The notes below the pieces were generated by a model that ran no database searches, was not told the origin of the DNA, and saw only the letters and a program-made list of their open reading frames with translations. Both the position numbers and the translations under genes were made by a program. A DNA stretch of 64,000 nt, from IMG/VR virus record IMGVR_UViG_3300044630_004720. One strand, given 5' to 3'. This stretch comes from a virus (Duplodnaviria; Caudoviricetes). Of the stretch, positions 25,203-55,619 are shown in pieces (within the stretch, counting starts at the first letter, position 1; every line of letters begins with the position of its first letter).

Positions 25203-25244
25203 ATTTAAAAAATTCTTGATATTTATATTTATAACAAAAATATT

Positions 25245-25448
25245 ATGGACAATTTAAAAATAAATAATACGGCGGACCAATTCTTAAACCAAAAACAGGT
25301 TACCAAGATATCTAACGATGGAATGGAACGTGAAGAATGTGATTTAGTAACTGGAGAATGTTATGTTATCAGGTCAAAAGATGGTATAGTAGAAAGAATA
25401 AATAAAAAATACATTACCGAAGACGGTAGACAACTATTACAAGATTAA
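25245..25448 (+). CDS. Hypothetical protein (67 aa)
   Basis: ORF preceded by two overlapping TATTTATA motifs (25220, 25226). Confidence 0.6.
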   Translation: MDNLKINNTADQFLNQKQVTKISNDGMEREECDLVTGECYVIRSKDGIVERINKKYITEDGRQLLQD

Positions 25449-44600: not shown

Positions 44601-45512
44601 ATGGCAGTAGGTAGTTACGGAACAATAAGACCAGCAGATGTATCCCCAGCGGACGTTGATATTTTCTATCATTACGTTTCGGGAAGAACTGCCAGTGCTG
44701 AAGTTCAGTTCGAAAAATTAGATAATTCACAAGATATTTTGACCCCTGTATTCCATAATGCAAATACAGGAGGTAATGCCGATACTGAAATATTAGGTGG
44801 TTTGTATAACTTGAAATTAGAATCTTCACGATTCTCTGAATTAGGAATATATACACTTTACCTAAGACCAAAACAAATTAGAACCACGGTTTCGGATTGT
44901 GGTGTCTTATCGTCACTTCCTTCTGTTAGAGGTTTGGTAATTGATTTAAGTGTAATAGACCCCGCAGATAGAAATAAATTTACACCACAAGGATTGGTAG
45001 GGTATAGAATAGAATATTTGGACGCCGATTCGGGTGCAAAAATTCCTAATTTCTTTAGAATAGTTACATCATCCTTTTATTGTGAACCAATTACCTCAAA
45101 CTTAAGTAATTCATCACAAAAAGCAATTAGATACCGTTATTCCGATATTGCAACCAATTTAATGTTTTTAACATTAACACCAAGTTCATCACCAACTAGT
45201 AGACCCAACACCATTCCGTTTATTGGTCAACCGAACCAAAGTATCATTTTATCGAACACCTTTTTCAATCCTGTTATGTTAGAGATTGATATGGTAGAAC
45301 ACGACGCAACAACATTGGCACACGCACTTTACGGTAACCAAAGTAAGTCGGTTGAGGATGGTATTTACACGATTTATGACCAAAATAATAATATCTATAA
45401 GCAATTTAACTTATATGAAATCAAAGATGATGTTAATGAAACGTTATACGAAATTAGAGAAAAACGTGATAACATTGACGAATCATTAAATTTTGATGTT
45501 ATAACTGAATAA
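44601..45512 (+). CDS. Putative baseplate structural protein
   Basis: TATTTATA at 44583; coupled to the downstream giant ORF; no named family recognised. Confidence 0.5.
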
Positions 45513-48500
45513 TGGCAACAAGGAAAGTCCCTAGTCAGGCGGCAAGTGGTGGTGAAACTTTTAATGACAAGCTGATTGGTCTACAGATTACAGACGGTAG
45601 TTCTCAGCTGGCTAACACCGCGTTCCTTATAGATAGAGTAATTCCAGAAAAAGACAGTAAGAATTTTTTAACCCAACCCTTTTCTGATTTTCTAACATTA
45701 GATACATTACAAGAAGAGACAAGTCAGATTTACGAAAATAACTCAACAAGTACTTCATTTGAAAGAAGTAAAAAGATTAAGTTTCACAATTCAAAATCTG
45801 ATGCGACAAAATCATTGTTTGGTTCTTTAAGTGTTAGGTTAAGTGTTGCAGTTTCAAATGTTATAGAAAAATATCCGGCAGCGATGTTAGTCGATGTTGA
45901 CTCTCCGGTGTCAACAACAAGTATCAGTGCTGAAGACATTTCATATGACGGTATTGCCAATACCACACAATTTAAATTTAAGAAGTCTTTAATTTACAAT
46001 CCGTTCGACATTGTTATACAACAACCAGAATCAGTTGTAATTTTAAATTCTAAAAACACATATAGAGATTTTTATTCTTCATATACAAAATATGTAATTG
46101 ATAATTTAAGCGGCTCAACCTATGAAATCTTATCTTATGATGAACCAGATAATAATGGTTACATTAATTTAAGAGTTTCAGGTAAGTGTTTTGCAAATAC
46201 AACGGGGTATACCGAAAATTATTTGATAAGACCAAATAATGGTGTTACTGAAGAATTTTTTAATAGTTTAGACGAACTAGAAACATCATTAGTCGATAGA
46301 GAATCATATCCAAAATACACCGCGTCATTTAGAATTCCAATGGATTTATATGACGGGGCGGTTAGTGAATTACAAACAGAAACCGCAACTTGGCCAATAT
46401 CTAGAGATGGATGGAACTTACAAATTATCGGTTTAGATTATGAATCTTACATTACAAGATTAAGTAACATTGGTAATATCGTTGATGATTACAAATCAAA
46501 TTTAATTATTAGATTTTTATCATCACCACAACTTTTCGAATTTGATACCGAAGAAAAAAAGGCGGAAGCAATTTTCCAACTTTATGGTCAAAGTTTTGAC
46601 AAGGTAAAAAAATTCATAGACAATATTGCTTATATGAGGAATGTTAGTTATGACAAAACTAACAATGTTCCTGATGTATTGTTAAAAAACCTATCCGAAA
46701 CTTTAGGATTATCAACAGTAAATTTATACGATGAGAAATCGTTACAGGATACCTTATACACAAGACATACACAACAATATGATGGTGTATTAACAGGATT
46801 AAACTTGTTAGAAGGTGAATATGAGTTTTATAGAAGATTAATTGTAAACTTAGCACATTTATATAAAACGAAAGGTACAAGGTTAGCCATTGAATTTTTC
46901 TTAAAGTTCATAGGTGCTCCTGAACCAATGATTAGGTTGGACGAATACATCTATAAAGTAGATGGATTATTACCAAAATCAACGTATGAGAATGACATCA
47001 GAGAAGTAATTTTAGGTGTTAAAGAATTCCATACGATGGAATTTGTTCCAACAACCACAACGATAAATGGTACAACATATTCAGCATACACATATCGATT
47101 AGTTACCACATCGGGTTCCACAACATTAACAAGAGACGAATATCCTGTTTATAGTGATGGAACACCAAAAGCAAAAAATAGTTTAGATGGTAGTCATTAT
47201 TTCGCTAAAGGTGCTGGTTGGTATAGAAAAACATTAGACCATAGGTCAATTGATATATTAGATACTGAAAATTCAGTTTTAACAGGAAATACTAAAGTAT
47301 TAAAAACCAAATCAAAACCGTTCACATATGGTGAAGATTATTTTAATGTTTATAGAAAATTACCCGGTTTAGATTATGGATACGATTTAAATGGAGAAAT
47401 CAATAATGATAAAACAGAAATTATTGATGATAGTGAAGTTGAACATATTTTAAATAGAAAAAATGTAAACATTTTCTTAGACGGTTCAAGAGCGATTGAC
47501 TATGACATCTACACAAAAAGTAGAAACTTAAGTTTAACATTTGGTACATTACCACCACAAGAAAAACCTTCTTTTGCTGAGTTTTTAAAGGAGGCAATTA
47601 GTAACGTTATTCGAAATTCTAATACTATTAAGTATAGAAAAGAGTATCGTTTATTAAAGAAGGTTTATGAAGACTATGCAAATAGTAATGGATTCACTCC
47701 ATACAACTATATTAAAATAAATGAATTCATTCAAAGAATGAGTCCATATTGGGTTAATATAATTGACCAATTTGTTCCTGCAACAACTCAATGGTTGGGA
47801 GGTAATTTAATTGAAAACGGAACATTCGGAAGGTCTAAATTTCAATACAAACAACCTTGTACACCAAAAGAATTTGTTGAAGTTCTATATCCTGATTTTG
47901 AAACTGTAATTGAAGAAGATTTAGAAACAATATTAGGAGGGGGTACAACAACATATGAAGCATCAAATTATGATAGTTTAAGGGGATTATCAATATTAAC
48001 TGGTTTAACATACACAATTTATTTAAGAATAAATGATGTTGAATTTAATCAGAGTACATCAGTTTTAAATGATGAGATATTTGGAACCGGTTTCACTTCA
48101 ACAGCATCTTGTCTTCCTTTAGTATATACGGGTTCAACATCAGGTATACCACTTATTTGTGGATATAAGGGTGACTATAGTAATAGTGATAGTACCGTAA
48201 ATGGAATTAATAATTGGCAGGGAATTAACTTAGATTTACCAACAATAAAAACTATTTGGAAAAATAGTTTAACAAGTTTGGTACAAAAAATTAACGATGG
48301 TTTAACGGGTTTAACTGAAAACAATACAATTACAAAAATCACATTTGATGATTATGGTTGTATTGATGAATATGCACCATATACCGCTCAAACAAATACT
48401 TCTAGTTGTAGGCAAGTCACAAAGAATTCATTATCCGTAAACTTTTTTATTGATACTGATGGTGTTGAGAAAGCTAAATTCATATTGGACACAACAGATT

Positions 48501-51500
48501 GTAGAAACGGTGAAGATATTGATTTTTACTTTGAACCAATCTATGGAATAAAAGAAGAAGAATGTGGTTTAAAGGTTGTTGCCGCAGGTCCTTGTATACC
48601 ATATAGTGGAGATATAGAAAACTGTCAATTAGTTGAAGATGTTTATATTTTCGTATCAGGTTTTACAGGTATTGAAGCGGACACTATATGGGATGTTAAT
48701 TTTTATATTACAAGTGGAACCACCTGTGATACTGGTGTATGCACCAATTGTGAGTTTATTGAAATAAATGACCCAAAACCAATACAAAGAGGGGTTAACC
48801 CATCTACATTAGCAGTACAAAATTGTGTAACTACAGGTGATGTTACAGGTAAAGTTTACGTTATACCGGCAGTTAAAGAAACCGATGTGTATGATATTAT
48901 AGTATCAGACGCATCAAACTGTGAACAGAAAATTAGAATAGAAGGATTACAAAGAAAAATTGTACAATTATCTGACGAAGTTAGTGGATACACAATTAAT
49001 CCTAAAGTACAATATAAAACATCATTTGATTATGGTTTAAAGAAAGGTAGTAAAGTATACAAATATGTAAGCAACGGAATACCAACAACTTGGAATGATT
49101 TACAAACACATATTCTTTCTGGTTACACGGTTGAAGTGTTAATAGACGACATTCAAATCGGTGATGTAATATTATCGATAGAACAAAAAGATTGTGGAGA
49201 ACTGCCATCAAACCTATTTAATTTTATTGATGACCAAGGATATCAATTTACGTTTGACTATAAATGGGTTACGGTTAATAGAAAAGAATGTTTCTCTTCT
49301 ATTAAGAAAGATATCATAAATGATGAATTTGAAATTTTACCAACTAGTAAAGTTTTAGTATACACTAATATTGATGAAAATTTACAACCAATTCCGTATC
49401 AATTTAAATTCAAACATCCTGAAGATTTATTTGTAAGACCCGAACAACCTGAAGAACCTTGTTGTGAATATCCTGAAAATTATTTTCAAAGTGGTGATTT
49501 CTTAATCAACCAATTTGGTTTTCCAATAGAAGTAACAAGTGTAGATTTAAATTATTGTGATAGAGGAATTTATTATACGTTGGTAACAACAAATGATGAA
49601 TTATCTACAAATAGCAATAACATTATTGTAAATGGTAAGTCAGGGGAGACAGACAGATTAATAGTTTCTTTCATTAATAATTCAAAACAAGACGGAACAT
49701 CAAGTTCATTTAAATTCGAATGTTTAGATATTGACATTGAGGAGTGGTACTATGGTTACATTTGTGATACGGGTAAAACAATAACAAGAGACATAGATTG
49801 TACTGATAGTGTTTGTTCACAATCACCAGTAAGTAGTAGTACCTGTGAGGCGTTTGTTGGTGAAATAACAACTCCTACACCTACCCCAACCCCAAGTCCT
49901 ACTCCAACACCGACCGCAACACCTACACCAACTGCAACTGCAACGCCGACTGTAACGCCAACGCCGACTGCTACGCCAACACCAACCGCAACGGGTACAC
50001 CAACACCTACACCAACTGCAACACCTACACCAACATCAACTCCTACCCCAACACCAACTGCAACAGGTACACCAACACCTACTCCAACCCCTACCTCAAC
50101 ACCAATATGTGATTTTGATATTGATGTGGTTGTAACATACACAACAGCGACACCAACTCCTACTCCTACGGCAACCCCTACACCTACCGCAACACCGGTT
50201 TGTGATTTTGATATTGATATTGTTGTGGCAACATCAACCCCAACCCCAACACCTACGCCAACACCAACACCAACTGCAACACCAATATGTGATTTTGATA
50301 TTGACATTGTTGTAGTAACAGCAACCGCAACCCCTACACCAACACCTACGGCAACAGGCACTCCAACTCCAACTCCGACCGCAACACCAGTTTGTGAGTT
50401 TGACATTGATGTTGTGGTAGTATTAGCAACTGCAACTCCTACACCAACACCGACAGCAACGTCTACACCAACACCGACACCTACTTCAACCCCAATATGT
50501 GATTTTGATATCGACGTGGATATATTAACATCTACGCCAACACCAACCCCAACCGCAACACCTACACCTACACCAACAGAGACTGGAACACCGACACCTA
50601 CACCAACATCTACTCCAATTTGTGAGTTTGATATTGATGTTGTAGTGGTAACATCGACTGTAACTCCCACACCAACAGCAACAAGTACACCAACCCCTAC
50701 ACCGACTCCAACGGTTGACCCTTGTATAGATTGTCCTGAAGGTTATGTATGGACATATGTTGGAGATGGAATTTGCACCTCAACTGATGTTGTATCTGCA
50801 ACTCCACCAACGTCATCATATACTGCGTTTGAAAGAAAGTACTTTGAGTACAGTATGAGTGGTACAACGGTTTATCAATCAGGTTGGAATATAAATGGTA
50901 CAGGTACATCACAAGTACAATTAAACACTGCAAATCTTTGGAAGAATACAACTGGAACGTCTCCAAGTAATCCAGGTAACGGACCATTAAACAGAACAGG
51001 GCTATGGGCAAATCTTGACACTGCGGACCCAATTGATTATCCATTACAAACGTGGTTAGGATTTAATGCTTGTATCACAGGATTTACAGGTGGATTATAT
51101 TATGTAGGTATTGGTGCCGATAACGAATTCAGATTAGAAGTTGATGGTGTTGTTGTGTTAGACACATTTGCCAATTCAGGTCTTAATGAGCTAGCTAAAT
51201 TTAGAACTTGGCACGTTTACCCTGTAACATTAAGTGCGGGAGACCACATCATTGGATTGTATGGTTATAACTTATTAGGAAATCAAACGAATCCAGCAGG
51301 ATTTGGTTGTGAAATATATGATAACACATTAGCAGAATTAACAGGAGCAACATCAGTAAACGATTTGAATATCGTGTTCACCTCAACAGACTTTATTGGT
51401 GATATTATCCCTGTTGTTAAAGATGTAAATGGTGTTTATTTAGCGTCAGGATATACTTGTCCAACAGGATATGAATACGCACAATGTACAGGAAATTGTT

Positions 51501-52852
51501 GGAAGACAATATATTGTCCTGATAATACTACACCAACTCCTACACCAACCGTAACACCAACTCCTACAGAGACCGGAACACCAACACCTACGCCGACACC
51601 AACTGATACGGGTACACCAACACCAACGCCAACGGCAACTCCTACTCCAACTCCTACACCAACTGCAACACCGGTTTGTGAATTCGGAATTGAGGTAATT
51701 GTTATACCGGCGACACCAACCCCTACACCTACCGCAACACCAACCCCTACACCTACTGAAACAGGTACCCCAACTCCAACCCCAACGTCGACTCCAATAT
51801 GTGAGTTCGATATTGATGTCGTTGTGGTACAACCAACAAGTACACCTACACCGACCGCAACTCCGACTTCAACGCCAACACCTACACCAACCGATACCGC
51901 AACACCAACACCTACCCCTACATCTACAATAGATTGTACGTTTGAAGCGTCATTCACAGAATATTTCGAATCAACACCAACACCAACACCTACCCCAACA
52001 CCAACAATCACACCGATATGTTGTGTATCAGGAGTTACATTAAATGTAACAGACCCAGGATGGATTAAATTTAAACTATGTGACGGAACGGATGAATATC
52101 GTGAATACACTACTACAGGTACTAAAGTTATCACCGAATGTATTCAACAAAATAGTGTTGCGGTTGGTGTACCATACGCTGACTTAGCCGCGTTCACAGT
52201 TAGTGGAGGAGGTACAAATTGTGGAGGAGATTGTCCTCCGGCAATTGTGATTGATGAGAACACAAAAATTAACATATTCTTTGATAGTTCGGGTTCTATG
52301 AACGACACGTTACCACCATTACAAACAATGAGAAATTCAACATTGAAGAATTGTTTATTACCATTCTATAATAACAATAGTGCAAAATATGATAGTTTAG
52401 TAACAATTACATCATATCCGAATGAAAGAACATTTTTTTGGTTAACAACAACTAGTGGAACCACTACAAATGTTTCAAAAGTTATAAACCTTGTGTTTAC
52501 TGATGAAAACTCACCATACGGAGCTGGTCAAGAACACACAACTCAATGGAATACAAGAACATCAGACTATAACACAGATATGTCTCTGTTAAGAAGTGTT
52601 TTAAATCGTACACCTAATTCAGAATATTATAGAGCAATAATTTTTAGAGTACAGGGATATAACGTATTCAGTAATTTCTTAACAGCAGTATTCAATGGTA
52701 CGGGTTCATACTCAGGAACGAATGGATTGTCTGATAAAACTAATATGGTAAGTTTTATTCCAAATGTAACAGCGGCATCGACAGCTCAATATTACACAAA
52801 CCAAATAATAAGTGCAATTAATACTTTAGGATATAACTTAAGTCCGTGTTGA
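45512..52852 (+). CDS. Giant baseplate wedge/fibre protein: P2 gpI/gp7-like region, degenerate Hint-like domain, PT repeats, PA14-like and vWA-like domains
   Basis: [14 protein letters not shown]...[14 protein letters not shown] (gpI-like); [12 protein letters not shown]...[15 protein letters not shown] (Hint-like); [12 protein letters not shown]...[12 protein letters not shown] (PA14-like); FFDSSGSM (MIDAS). Confidence 0.65.
49871..52010 (+). repeat. Pro-Thr coding repeats (two blocks) punctuated by (I/V)C(D/E)F(D/G)I(D/E)V motifs
   Basis: Degenerate ACN-CCN hexamer repeats at about 49871-50712 and 51526-52010; eight spacer motifs counted. Confidence 0.95.
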
Positions 52853-52871: not shown

Positions 52872-54356
52872 ATGGCAAGATATTTTTACATATTAATTAC
52901 AGGAGGAACATCATCAGGACCTTACTCTGCGTATTATGATACTGTGAGTTCTTCTAACTATGCCACAAAAATCAGCACAAATTTACCCGCAACTGGTATG
53001 ACATATAATGATTTGACAACAGGTCAAGGAGTTAATGTATCGATACCAGACGGAAGTACTTCAATTATTTTATATAATGAATTATGTAATAGTGATATTA
53101 CTTTAATATTCCCAACACCAACCCCAACCCCTACACCTACGGCAACAGGTACACCGACCCCTACACCGACAGTAACACCAACTGAAACTCCAGAACCTAC
53201 ACCAACGGCAACTCCTACACCAACTCCTACACCAACTGCAACACCGGTTTGTGAATTCGGAATTGAGGTAATTGTTATACCGGCAACTCCAACCCCAACA
53301 CCAACACCTACTAACACATCAACCCCAACTCCAACCCCAACACCAACGGATACAGCCACTCCAACCCCAACTCCTACTAACACCCCTACGCCTACACCAA
53401 CTAACACCCCAACTCCTACACCGACCGCAACACCAATATGTGAGTTTGGAATTGACGTTGTGGTAATACCTGCAACTGCTACACCAACACCTACACCAAC
53501 TGCAACACCTACGAATACACCAACCGCAACACCAACACCTACACCTACGGCGACACCAACTGATACACCAACACCTACGCCGACACCGACCGCAACACCT
53601 ACTAACACTCCTACGCCAACACCAACTAACACCCCAACTCCTACACCAACTGCAACACCAATATGTGAATTTGGAATTTATGTTACTGTAATACCAGCAA
53701 CTGCAACTCCTACGCCAACACCTACGAATACACCAACACCAACACCTACTAACACTCCTACACCTACACCTACGGCGACTCCAACAGATACGCCTACACC
53801 GACACCTACGGCGACTCCAACAGATACGCCTACACCAACACCAACTAACACTCCAACTCCTACACCTACGGCCACTCCGACATCAACACCAACACCATTA
53901 CCTTGTGTGGCTGAAATTACAAATGTAAGTAATCCAACAAGTTGTGGTAACAATATTGATGGTTCATTCACATTAACATCTTCAGGTGGTGTTTGGAATA
54001 GAACTTATGAACTATTTAAAGATAGTTCGTTCCCATATGAAACAACTGGAGGTATCTCAATTCAAACTTGGACTGACGTAACAGAATTTGGTAAAAATAT
54101 TTCAGTTACAGGATTAGAACCAGGTGGATACTATTTGAAAATTACAGATGTTGGTGGATGTGTTGATTACAGTGAAGTTGTGGTATTACCATTCGATGAT
54201 ACACCTTGCGTCACACCAACACCTACGCCATCAGTACAATACTGTTATACGGACGGAAATGGTATAGTACAAGGACCATTCTCGACATTACAAGAATGTA
54301 CAGCGAATTCTGGCGCTAGAGTATGTGAACAATGTGTTGGTGAACCAATAACTTAA
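52872..54356 (+). CDS. Pro-Thr-rich fibre-like protein with a SprB-like repeat
   Basis: PT tract with three CEFGI.V.VI spacers; [17 protein letters not shown]...[17 protein letters not shown] resembles the SprB repeat. Confidence 0.6.
53113..53900 (+). repeat. Pro-Thr coding repeat block
   Basis: Degenerate ACN-CCN repeats seen directly in the sequence. Confidence 0.95.
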
Positions 54357-54433
54357 AAGTATATGTCGAAGAGCTCAGATTGTTTGTACACAATTTGAAG
54401 TTTAAGACTTTAGAATAATAATAAAAAATAAGA

Positions 54434-54441
54434 TATTTATA
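54434..54441 (+). promoter_or_regulatory. Putative late promoter motif TATTTATA for the stand-alone Hint gene
   Basis: In the 101-bp intergenic gap, 16 nt before the ATG at 54458. Confidence 0.55.
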
Positions 54442-54457
54442 TAGAAACCAAACAGAA

Positions 54458-54919
54458 ATGAAAAATCAAAAAGGAGGATGTTTAATCCAAGGAACTTTAA
54501 TTACATTATCCGATGATACCACCAAGTCAATAGAAAACATTGAAGTGGGTGATATTGTAAAATCAATGGTATATGACAGTGAAACAAGTGGATTCACAGA
54601 AACAACAGGAACAGTTGTTGAATTACAACAAGTTGAAGCCACTGTAGTGTTTTCATTGAACGAAGGTTTAATAACTGTGTCAGAAGACCATAAAAATATT
54701 GTAAAGCAATCAGAATCAGGAAATATTGTTGTAACAGAAACTGAATTTGTTTCTGTAGGTGACAAATTATTTGACATAAACGGAGCAGAAGTTGAAATTA
54801 CAAGTAAAGATGAAATTGAAACACCTCAAACTGTTTATAACATCGTTGTAGATAATACACATAGTTTCTTTGCCAATAATATTTTAACACATAATCAAAT
54901 TCTACCAACAGAAGAATAA
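54458..54919 (+). CDS. Stand-alone Hint (bacterial intein-like / Hedgehog-intein) domain protein
   Basis: MKNQKGG|CLIQGTLI...KSIENIEVGDIV...SEDH...VGDKL...VYNIVVDNTHSFFANNILTHN|QILPTEE. Confidence 0.9.
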   Translation: MKNQKGGCLIQGTLITLSDDTTKSIENIEVGDIVKSMVYDSETSGFTETTGTVVELQQVEATVVFSLNEGLITVSEDHKNIVKQSESGNIVVTETEFVSVGDKLFDINGAEVEITSKDEIETPQTVYNIVVDNTHSFFANNILTHNQILPTEE

Positions 54920-54932
54920 ATTTTAAAACAAT

Positions 54933-55619
54933 ATGTTAGTAACATTTTATTTATCAGGACCATATTCATCAACAACAGTATCAAGTAAATTTACGATTGT
55001 TGGTAACCCGGGTGCGGAAACATTTACGGGAGTAACTAAAACACAATTGTTAACGGGACATTCGTTAACTTTCTCAGAATCGGTAACGGGTGGTACAGTA
55101 ACAACAACCGAACCTGAAACTTGCGTTGGTACAGTTGTTAACTGGTTTGTTGAACCACAAACAACCCCAACCCCAACCCCAACTCCAACACAAACACAAG
55201 GAGATGGATATTGTTACAGCTATGAAGTTAGTGATACTGTAAATCAAAATAATTATGGTGTAAGATATACTGACCCTAACGTTGGTACAAGTCAAGATGT
55301 TAAATTTGATATGTTAATGGGAATTGATGATAATGGTTTCACAACATTTAACATATGTAGTACTGTTGACCCAACATTGTTAGATTACACAATAGCACCA
55401 CCTAACCCTACTGGCGTTGGTTCAGTACCTGGCGTGGCACGTTTTGGTGGTCTTACTCCTTGTACATCATCTCTTGGTTGTACATCATCATCAGGACCTG
55501 AATACTGTTATGTGAATGGACAATCTGTAGTAGTGGGACCATTCTCTACATTACAAGAATGTCAGGACGCTGCAGGTTCGTTTATATGTAGCCAATGTTT
55601 TGGTGAACCAGAACCTTAA
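54933..55619 (+). CDS. Cys-rich fibre-like protein with a short PT linker
   Basis: TPTPTPT linker; C-terminal YCY...GPFSTLQEC...C..C.GEP shared with 52872..54356. Confidence 0.55.
   Translation: MLVTFYLSGPYSSTTVSSKFTIVGNPGAETFTGVTKTQLLTGHSLTFSESVTGGTVTTTEPETCVGTVVNWFVEPQTTPTPTPTPTQTQGDGYCYSYEVSDTVNQNNYGVRYTDPNVGTSQDVKFDMLMGIDDNGFTTFNICSTVDPTLLDYTIAPPNPTGVGSVPGVARFGGLTPCTSSLGCTSSSGPEYCYVNGQSVVVGPFSTLQECQDAAGSFICSQCFGEPEP

Follow-up and report, generated by a model that had tools for sequence, protein, structure and literature searches.

Where Hint domains have been described, they belong to larger proteins, which they cut, splice or lipidate. The type-A bacterial intein-like (BIL) domains combine a Cys1 and a C-terminal His-Asn pair with the absence of a nucleophile at position +1 (PMC4031507), and they mainly produce N- and C-terminal cleavage, with splicing by aminolysis as a minor outcome (PMC4031507, PMC7664689). 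In BIL2, from the BUBL1 locus of the ciliate Tetrahymena thermophila, the upstream ubiquitin-like domain is conjugated to lysines (PMC8616854). In Hedgehog HhC (1AT0), the Gly-Cys junction needs only an N-S acyl shift (PMC7664689). A literature search for free-standing Hint proteins, or for phage fibres that end with a Hint domain, returned no paper.

Here we describe a Hint gene reduced to little more than the domain itself, which lies in a 64,000-nucleotide stretch of tailed-phage DNA (hereafter the window; IMG/VR record IMGVR_UViG_3300044630_004720). Among the products of the window are a gp6-like baseplate wedge protein, a ribonucleotide reductase, a UvsX-like recombinase, a DnaB-like helicase and a gp32-like protein. 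Flavobacterium myophages are the nearest relatives in culture (28% identity), and the stretch recurs in metagenomes of lake water and other fresh water obtained in many studies. A related viral contig of 81.7 kb was estimated to be 24% complete, so that a very large genome is probable; a single Hint was counted in this partial record. The features of the locus are as follows:

45512 to 52852, plus strand: giant fibre/baseplate-associated protein of 2446 amino acids
52872 to 54356, plus strand: 494-amino-acid fibre-like gene with Pro-Thr repeats, a variable upstream neighbour (absent in the related loci L001 and L003)
54376 to 54405, plus strand: non-coding relic, the last nine codons and the stop (QIVCTQFEV-stop) of an older fibre-gene tail
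54404 to 54448, plus strand: conserved promoter-like element of about 45 nt, with TATTTATA at 54434-54441
54458 to 54919, plus strand: Hint ORF, 153 codons, ATG start
54458 to 54478, plus strand: N-terminal flank (leader) MKNQKGG, seven codons, a length found in 10 of 10 full-length relatives
54479 to 54895, plus strand: Hint core, from Cys8 to Asn146 (Pfam, PDB, AlphaFold2 and Foldseek)
54896 to 54919, plus strand: C-terminal flank QILPTEE, seven codons and the stop
54933 to 55619, plus strand: partner gene, receptor-binding-fibre-like, 13 nt downstream of the Hint ORF and present in every locus

The product of the ORF is, with near certainty, one complete Hint domain belonging to the HINT superfamily. 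Cys8 (codon 54479-54481) directly follows Gly-Gly, the block-B motif Ser75-Glu-Asp-His78 is of the Thr/Ser-x-x-His type (His78 codon 54689-54691), and the core terminates with His145-Asn146 (54890-54895), the +1 residue being Gln147. All these residues had been pointed out in the initial annotation, together with the two seven-residue flanks, and they stand: the in-frame stop at 54419, 13 codons upstream, leaves at most 12 codons for an N-terminal extension, and the C-terminal flank is closed by the in-frame stop at 54917. In an HMM search against Hint profiles, PT-HINT (PF07591) was the sole Pfam model to score above its cut-off (30.6 bits versus 27.7), with weaker matches to Intein_splicing, Hint and Vint. 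The best PDB sequence matches were Tetrahymena BIL2 (6TMM/6Y75; E 2e-10) and the Clostridium thermocellum BIL (2LWY; E 8e-6), which bears out, along with the Gln at +1, the earlier assignment to the BIL kind of Hint that lacks a +1 nucleophile. The AlphaFold2 model (40-row alignment; pLDDT 89, pTM 0.83) is disordered only at residues 1-4 and 149-153, and its top 50 Foldseek matches are exclusively Hint domains (TM 0.56-0.77), with BIL2 first (TM 0.77), followed by 2LWY, then by mini-inteins and Hedgehog HhC. The protein has the beta-fold with pseudo-twofold symmetry, the N-terminal nucleophile and the block-B Ser-x-x-His of the superfamily. A PHROGs search with the Hint protein gave no useful match, and the cultured-phage records searched gave only three, all partial and weak. 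A fusion to either neighbour by readthrough or frameshifting was ruled out, as the reading frames differ on both sides and the relative L003 has a second in-frame stop.

How does this protein compare with the described families? Like type-A BILs, it has Cys1, the block-B His, the C-terminal His-Asn and a non-nucleophilic +1 residue, and in its fused relatives (see below) the likeness extends to an association with variable surface proteins. The Clostridium thermocellum BIL is 32% identical to it (Foldseek E 9e-10). Described type-A BILs are embedded in larger proteins that they process, whereas the window Hint has no host protein, such embedding being seen solely in the fused relatives. It shares with BIL2 (28% identity) the Gly-Gly before Cys1, the C-terminal His-Asn and the lack of a +1 nucleophile, but BIL2 lies between two ubiquitin-like domains in a ciliate and the window Hint between two seven-residue flanks in a phage, so that Gly-Gly before the cysteine is the only feature of BUBL-type flanks that the two have in common. 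Although its profile score exceeds the PT-HINT cut-off, it differs from the PT-HINT domains of polymorphic toxins, which have a toxin domain downstream and a secretion-related N-terminal part, in having just seven residues after Asn146 and in lying in a fibre operon. Hedgehog HhC has the same fold and a Gly-Cys junction but, unlike the window Hint, it possesses a sterol-recognition region and an N-terminal signalling domain, it is only 13-14% identical, and the terminal His-Asn is a feature of the window Hint. Nor is the window Hint a canonical class 1 intein, as its +1 residue is Gln and there is no conserved host protein to rejoin. Among the matches listed, the nearest proteins outside its own clade are uncharacterised phage fibre-like proteins with a C-terminal or internal Hint (such as P0025, P0043, P0162 and P0164; 34-47% identity), which share its catalytic residues, a K/Q-x-x-P linker after His-Asn and a protein style with Pro-Thr linkers and Cys-rich tails, but which possess N-exteins of 100 to more than 1000 residues and often a Cys-rich C-extein, whereas the window protein has neither. 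Judged from its sequence, the window Hint bears the catalytic signature of a type-A BIL and lacks the context features of every described family.

The minimal layout of a seven-residue leader, a Hint and a short tail is common to 11 free-standing sequences with 47-98% identity, namely the window protein, nine close relatives from a word-indexed search (47-98% identity, 144-167 amino acids) and a tenth on an IMG/VR contig. A maximum-likelihood tree built from 40 Hint domains (midpoint root) unites these 11 sequences in one clade with a support of 100/98. Cys8, Ser75, His78 and Asn146 are invariant in this clade, as is the -1 Gly of the leader, the length of which is fixed at seven whereas positions 2-6 vary; the -2 position is Lys in two members, which have Lys-Gly instead of Gly-Gly. 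Among all 40 Hint sequences (mean identity 42%), the only three invariant columns are Cys8, Asn146 and Asn68. Of the features whose conservation the initial annotation asked to be checked, Cys8, His78, Asn146 and the leader length are conserved, but not His145, which is replaced by Tyr in about half of the clade. The +1 residue, Gln in the window, is Glu in two relatives and Lys, Val, Leu or Ala in the fused relatives. The C-terminal flank is better conserved than the domain average and shows synonymous changes between loci; in the L001/L003 branch it comprises 15 residues with a different end. The dN/dS values range from 0.09 to 0.24 (pairwise, closer pairs), no frameshift or stop was found in the Hint ORF of any of 11 relatives, and no homing endonuclease is associated with the free-standing Hint. 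The possibility that the gene is broken was ruled out by this monophyletic and syntenic clade evolving under purifying selection. Homologues fused to long N-exteins, which had been named as the mark of a broken gene, are routine among the distant relatives, but the free-standing form is a clade of its own, syntenic and under purifying selection.

The Hint ORF had been proposed to possess its own promoter motif, and we indeed found TATTTATA within the upstream element, which is nearly identical in seven loci where the Hint proteins are just 48-84% identical and is conserved more strongly than the Hint coding sequence. The motif occurs 12 times in the window (at 2726, 5542, 10717, 12233, 14196, 25220, 25226, 44583, 54434, 57935, 59085 and 61332), a number equal to chance, and all 12 copies are located 3-34 nt before an ATG, on the strand of the gene concerned. 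The copies at 25220 and 25226 lie ahead of a small, unlisted ORF whose start is at 25245. The placement of the copies is consistent with a phage promoter whose mRNAs would have very short leaders or be nearly leaderless. Four RNA libraries yielded contigs covering the Hint ORF. One contig of 872 nt extends from the Hint into the beginning of the partner gene, the contigs of three runs begin at 54452-54460, and positions 53881-54366 are left uncovered. These contigs are a weak hint of transcription, as RNA ends cannot be defined from contigs and RNA libraries can carry DNA.

The position of the Hint among fibre genes was also confirmed, fibre-like genes being present on both sides. The partner gene starts 13-18 nt after the Hint in all eight locus types and encodes 179-228 amino acids, arranged as a conserved N-domain of 75 residues, a Pro-Thr linker and a hypervariable C-terminal part. 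In the comparison of its equivalents (L013, L014, L017, L019, L020, L001 and L003), the N-domain is 62-80% identical across loci, and the C-terminal part is unrelated even where the Hint proteins are identical (L017 versus L019). The partner is likely a receptor-binding protein, in which a conserved anchor would carry a tip exchanged as a cassette. A complex prediction for the Hint and the conserved N-domain of the partner gave a score of 0.00, which counts neither for nor against binding.

The upstream side of the locus has been rearranged. The relic lies between the stop of the 494-amino-acid gene and the promoter element of the Hint, and its letters are those found at the ends of the giant fibre genes that, in L001 and L003, lie immediately upstream of the Hint. 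The first 1450 residues or so of the 2446-amino-acid protein are 72% identical to the 1936-1941-amino-acid proteins that directly precede the Hint in L001 and L003, and the 494-amino-acid protein shares a C-terminal segment with the giant protein of L003 up to Cys-Val-Thr-Pro, after which the tails differ. Fibre tails seem to have been swapped at this Cys-Val-Thr-Pro junction, the same place at which the fused relative P0164 carries its Hint. Pfam identified no family (E <= 0.01) in the C-terminal parts of the giant and 494-amino-acid proteins or in the upstream genes of the relatives, and possible vWA and PA14 assignments were accordingly not confirmed. In the conserved part of the giant protein (45512-52852), a profile of 40 Hints gave two collinear sub-threshold matches at residues 1210-1373 or so (whole-sequence E 0.095); Pfam found nothing in the region of about residues 1175-1376, for which AlphaFold2 yielded a pLDDT of 28 from an alignment of only three rows.

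From these observations we propose, with about even confidence, that the window Hint is a type-A BIL-like domain derived from a fibre protein and retained by the phage, which sheds its leader and leaves a core of about 16 kDa to work with the fibre. First, Cys8, with the help of Ser75-x-x-His78, would perform an N-S acyl shift at Gly7-Cys8; we think that this reaction still occurs because the protein has the sequence features of type-A BILs and because Cys8 and Asn146 are among the three columns invariant in the 40 sequences. Second, the resulting thioester would be resolved by water or by a small nucleophile, and the leader would probably act as a self-removing propeptide, so that the mature protein begins at Cys8. 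That its length and its -1 Gly are fixed whereas its positions 2-6 vary points to a disposable propeptide rather than to a recognised tag. Third, cyclisation of Asn146 may trim the C-terminal flank in the His145 forms and would probably be inefficient in the Tyr145 forms. As Tyr replaces His145 in about half of the clade, the protein can probably do without C-terminal cleavage, and the conserved C-terminal flank may stay attached after maturation and serve as a short docking motif. Fourth, as the Hint is fixed directly before a fibre gene and under its own promoter, the core probably serves as a factor for assembly or attachment, together with the fibre protein transcribed along with it. One lineage of large lake phages would have kept the domain as a fixed cassette made of the promoter element, the Hint and the fibre gene. 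It counts against the propeptide reading that a leader and a tail of seven residues each give the cleavage chemistry no obvious purpose.

This same consideration, that the flanks are too small for their release to be useful, lends some weight to the idea that the Hint fold was co-opted by the fibre apparatus as a small protein with a structural, adaptor or chaperone function, with Cys8, His78 and Asn146 kept for folding or metal binding and not for bond rearrangement. Such a role, which we regard as unlikely, would agree with the fixed position before the fibre gene, with the free swapping of His145 for Tyr, and with the binding of Zn by BIL2 via His residues (PMC8616854). It would leave unexplained why the two residues of the scissile junctions, Cys8 and Asn146, account for two of the three invariant columns and why the free-standing clade has likewise retained the -1 Gly and Ser75-x-x-His78, and a purely structural protein would need no leader of fixed length ending in Gly.

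An acyl transfer is conceivable as well, in which the heptapeptide would be attached as a tag, via the Gly7 thioester, to a small molecule or to a lysine or amino terminus of a virion protein, or in which an exposed Cys8 would capture thioesters made by other Hint-bearing proteins. Such a transfer of MKNQKGG, put forward in the initial annotation, has a precedent in BIL2, the best solved relative, which attaches its Gly-Gly-terminated N-extein to lysines in an ATP-independent manner, and most of the clade likewise has Gly-Gly before Cys. Yet the leader varies at positions 2-6 and two members have Lys-Gly, a heptamer lacks a fold that a reader could recognise, and only one Hint was seen in the 81.7 kb of the relative. 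We consider this transfer distinctly improbable, and the heptapeptide tag less likely than the propeptide since the leader sequence varies. There is likewise a slender chance that the Hint serves as a single-use, ATP-independent ligation reagent, which would either join the Gly7 thioester to an amine of the fibre or use Cys8 to capture the thioesters of others; in the latter form the leader would be shed and Cys8 would become covalently joined, in the manner of native chemical ligation, to other Hint-bearing phage proteins.

It is very improbable that the Hint is a peptide maker, in which Asn cyclisation would free an amine that attacks the thioester, thereby joining the two flanks into a functional 14-residue peptide. 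This mechanism has been described for type-A BILs (PMC4031507), and it would account for the unusual conservation of the C-terminal flank at the protein level, with synonymous changes; it conflicts with the poor conservation of the N-terminal flank, the minor share of splicing in BILs, the probably poor cyclisation of the Tyr145 forms and the different, 15-residue C-terminal flank of the L001/L003 branch. We strongly disfavour, as highly improbable, a decaying or selfish remnant without function for the phage, left after a fibre gene was split or rearranged: the more distant relatives among the 159 matches listed are all fused and the surrounding fibre genes are visibly recombined (as the relic testifies), but the ORF is intact and under purifying selection without a homing endonuclease, its dedicated upstream element is conserved, and synteny is fixed down to 47% protein identity.

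Returning to our preferred reading, that a fibre-derived Hint was retained to work with the fibre, its origin can be traced in the fused relatives. An exhaustive profile-free search found 2473 relatives, 159 of which were listed; outside the cluster of the query itself, all of the listed matches are fused or partial, and every full-length protein has its Hint inside a longer protein. The closest fused group among the matches listed (34-47% identity) comprises proteins with Pro-Thr linkers and Cys-rich segments, which have one Hint each, at the very end of the protein, and a junction made of a small residue followed by Cys. After His-Asn, the proteins of this group have either Lys and a stop, a K-x-x-P-P linker or a peptide of about 40 residues with six Cys, and the C-terminal flank of the free-standing Hint aligns with the K-x-x-P-P linker. 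Structure-based searches (BFVD and ESM Atlas clusters) indicated that Hint-bearing fibre proteins are common in uncultured tailed phages, where they carry fn3, Laminin_G_3 or collagen parts.

Other arrangements were seen among the relatives. In a large tandem group among the matches listed (P0020, P0023, P0026, P0039 and others), two to seven complete Hints are arrayed head to tail without a spacer, so that the N-extein of each Hint is the preceding Hint. P0064 (201 amino acids) has a lipoprotein-type signal (a hydrophobic stretch and a Cys) and a Gly-rich stretch ahead of Cys1; it looks like a membrane-anchored Hint, which would release itself on N-terminal cleavage. On a related marine-type contig (L024, 10894-11325), the fibre-Hint fusion P0162 is directly followed by a SegE-type GIY-YIG homing endonuclease gene. 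The Hint-only matches P0165, P0167, P0169-P0173, P0175 and P0178, from a search restricted to small proteins, were rejected as free-standing proteins, as each either begins within the Hint or forms a portion of a longer frame (for P0172, an ORF of 393 amino acids or more), and P0179, which has a two-residue leader (Met-Phe) before Cys on a 907-nt contig, was left out of the free-standing count. As these small-protein matches are truncated gene calls, the minimal free-standing form appears to be essentially confined to the present clade.

The fused protein P0164 is informative as to how this form may have arisen. It starts with an N-domain of the partner type (profile E 4e-4, among 192 proteins), which is followed by a Hint. 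Directly after His-Asn comes a Cys-rich tail, which matches the tail at the C-terminus of the L001 and L003 giant proteins with 58% identity (E 3e-14, from a small search). In L001 and L003, this Cys-rich tail ends the gene located 59 nt upstream of the free-standing Hint gene. Hence, three modules (anchor domain, Hint and Cys-rich tail) that make up one polypeptide in P0164 occur as neighbouring pieces in other phages. P0164 is the only fused relative with a significant match to the N-domain of the partner; BLAST gave no significant match between the fused protein P0044 and the partner gene, and a profile-profile comparison of the partner N-domain with the N-domains of the fused relatives was weak (hhalign probability 24%, P 8.5e-4). 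From the modules of P0164, the relic at 54376-54405, the alignment of the C-terminal flank with the linker and the fused relatives, we infer that a BIL-type Hint of a fibre protein, placed where the fibre body meets a small Cys-rich tail, gave rise to the free-standing gene; both of its exteins would have been lost during recombination between fibre genes. The direction from fused to free is suggested by parsimony and by the relic, the tree being midpoint-rooted.

Together, these data connect Hint domains with the way in which phage fibres are built from recombining modules, and the presence of the same Cys-rich tail after the inserted Hint of P0164 and upstream of the free-standing Hint of L001 and L003 suggests that Hints move in and out of fibre genes. 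Purifying selection has maintained the catalytic residues of a protein with virtually nothing to cleave. Either the Hint chemistry has an undescribed use (self-activation, transfer or capture) or the fold plays another, non-catalytic part; the question is directly testable, as the protein is small and easy to express. If the domain did serve as a ligation reagent, in either of the forms considered above, it would represent a new covalent assembly chemistry for phage fibres.
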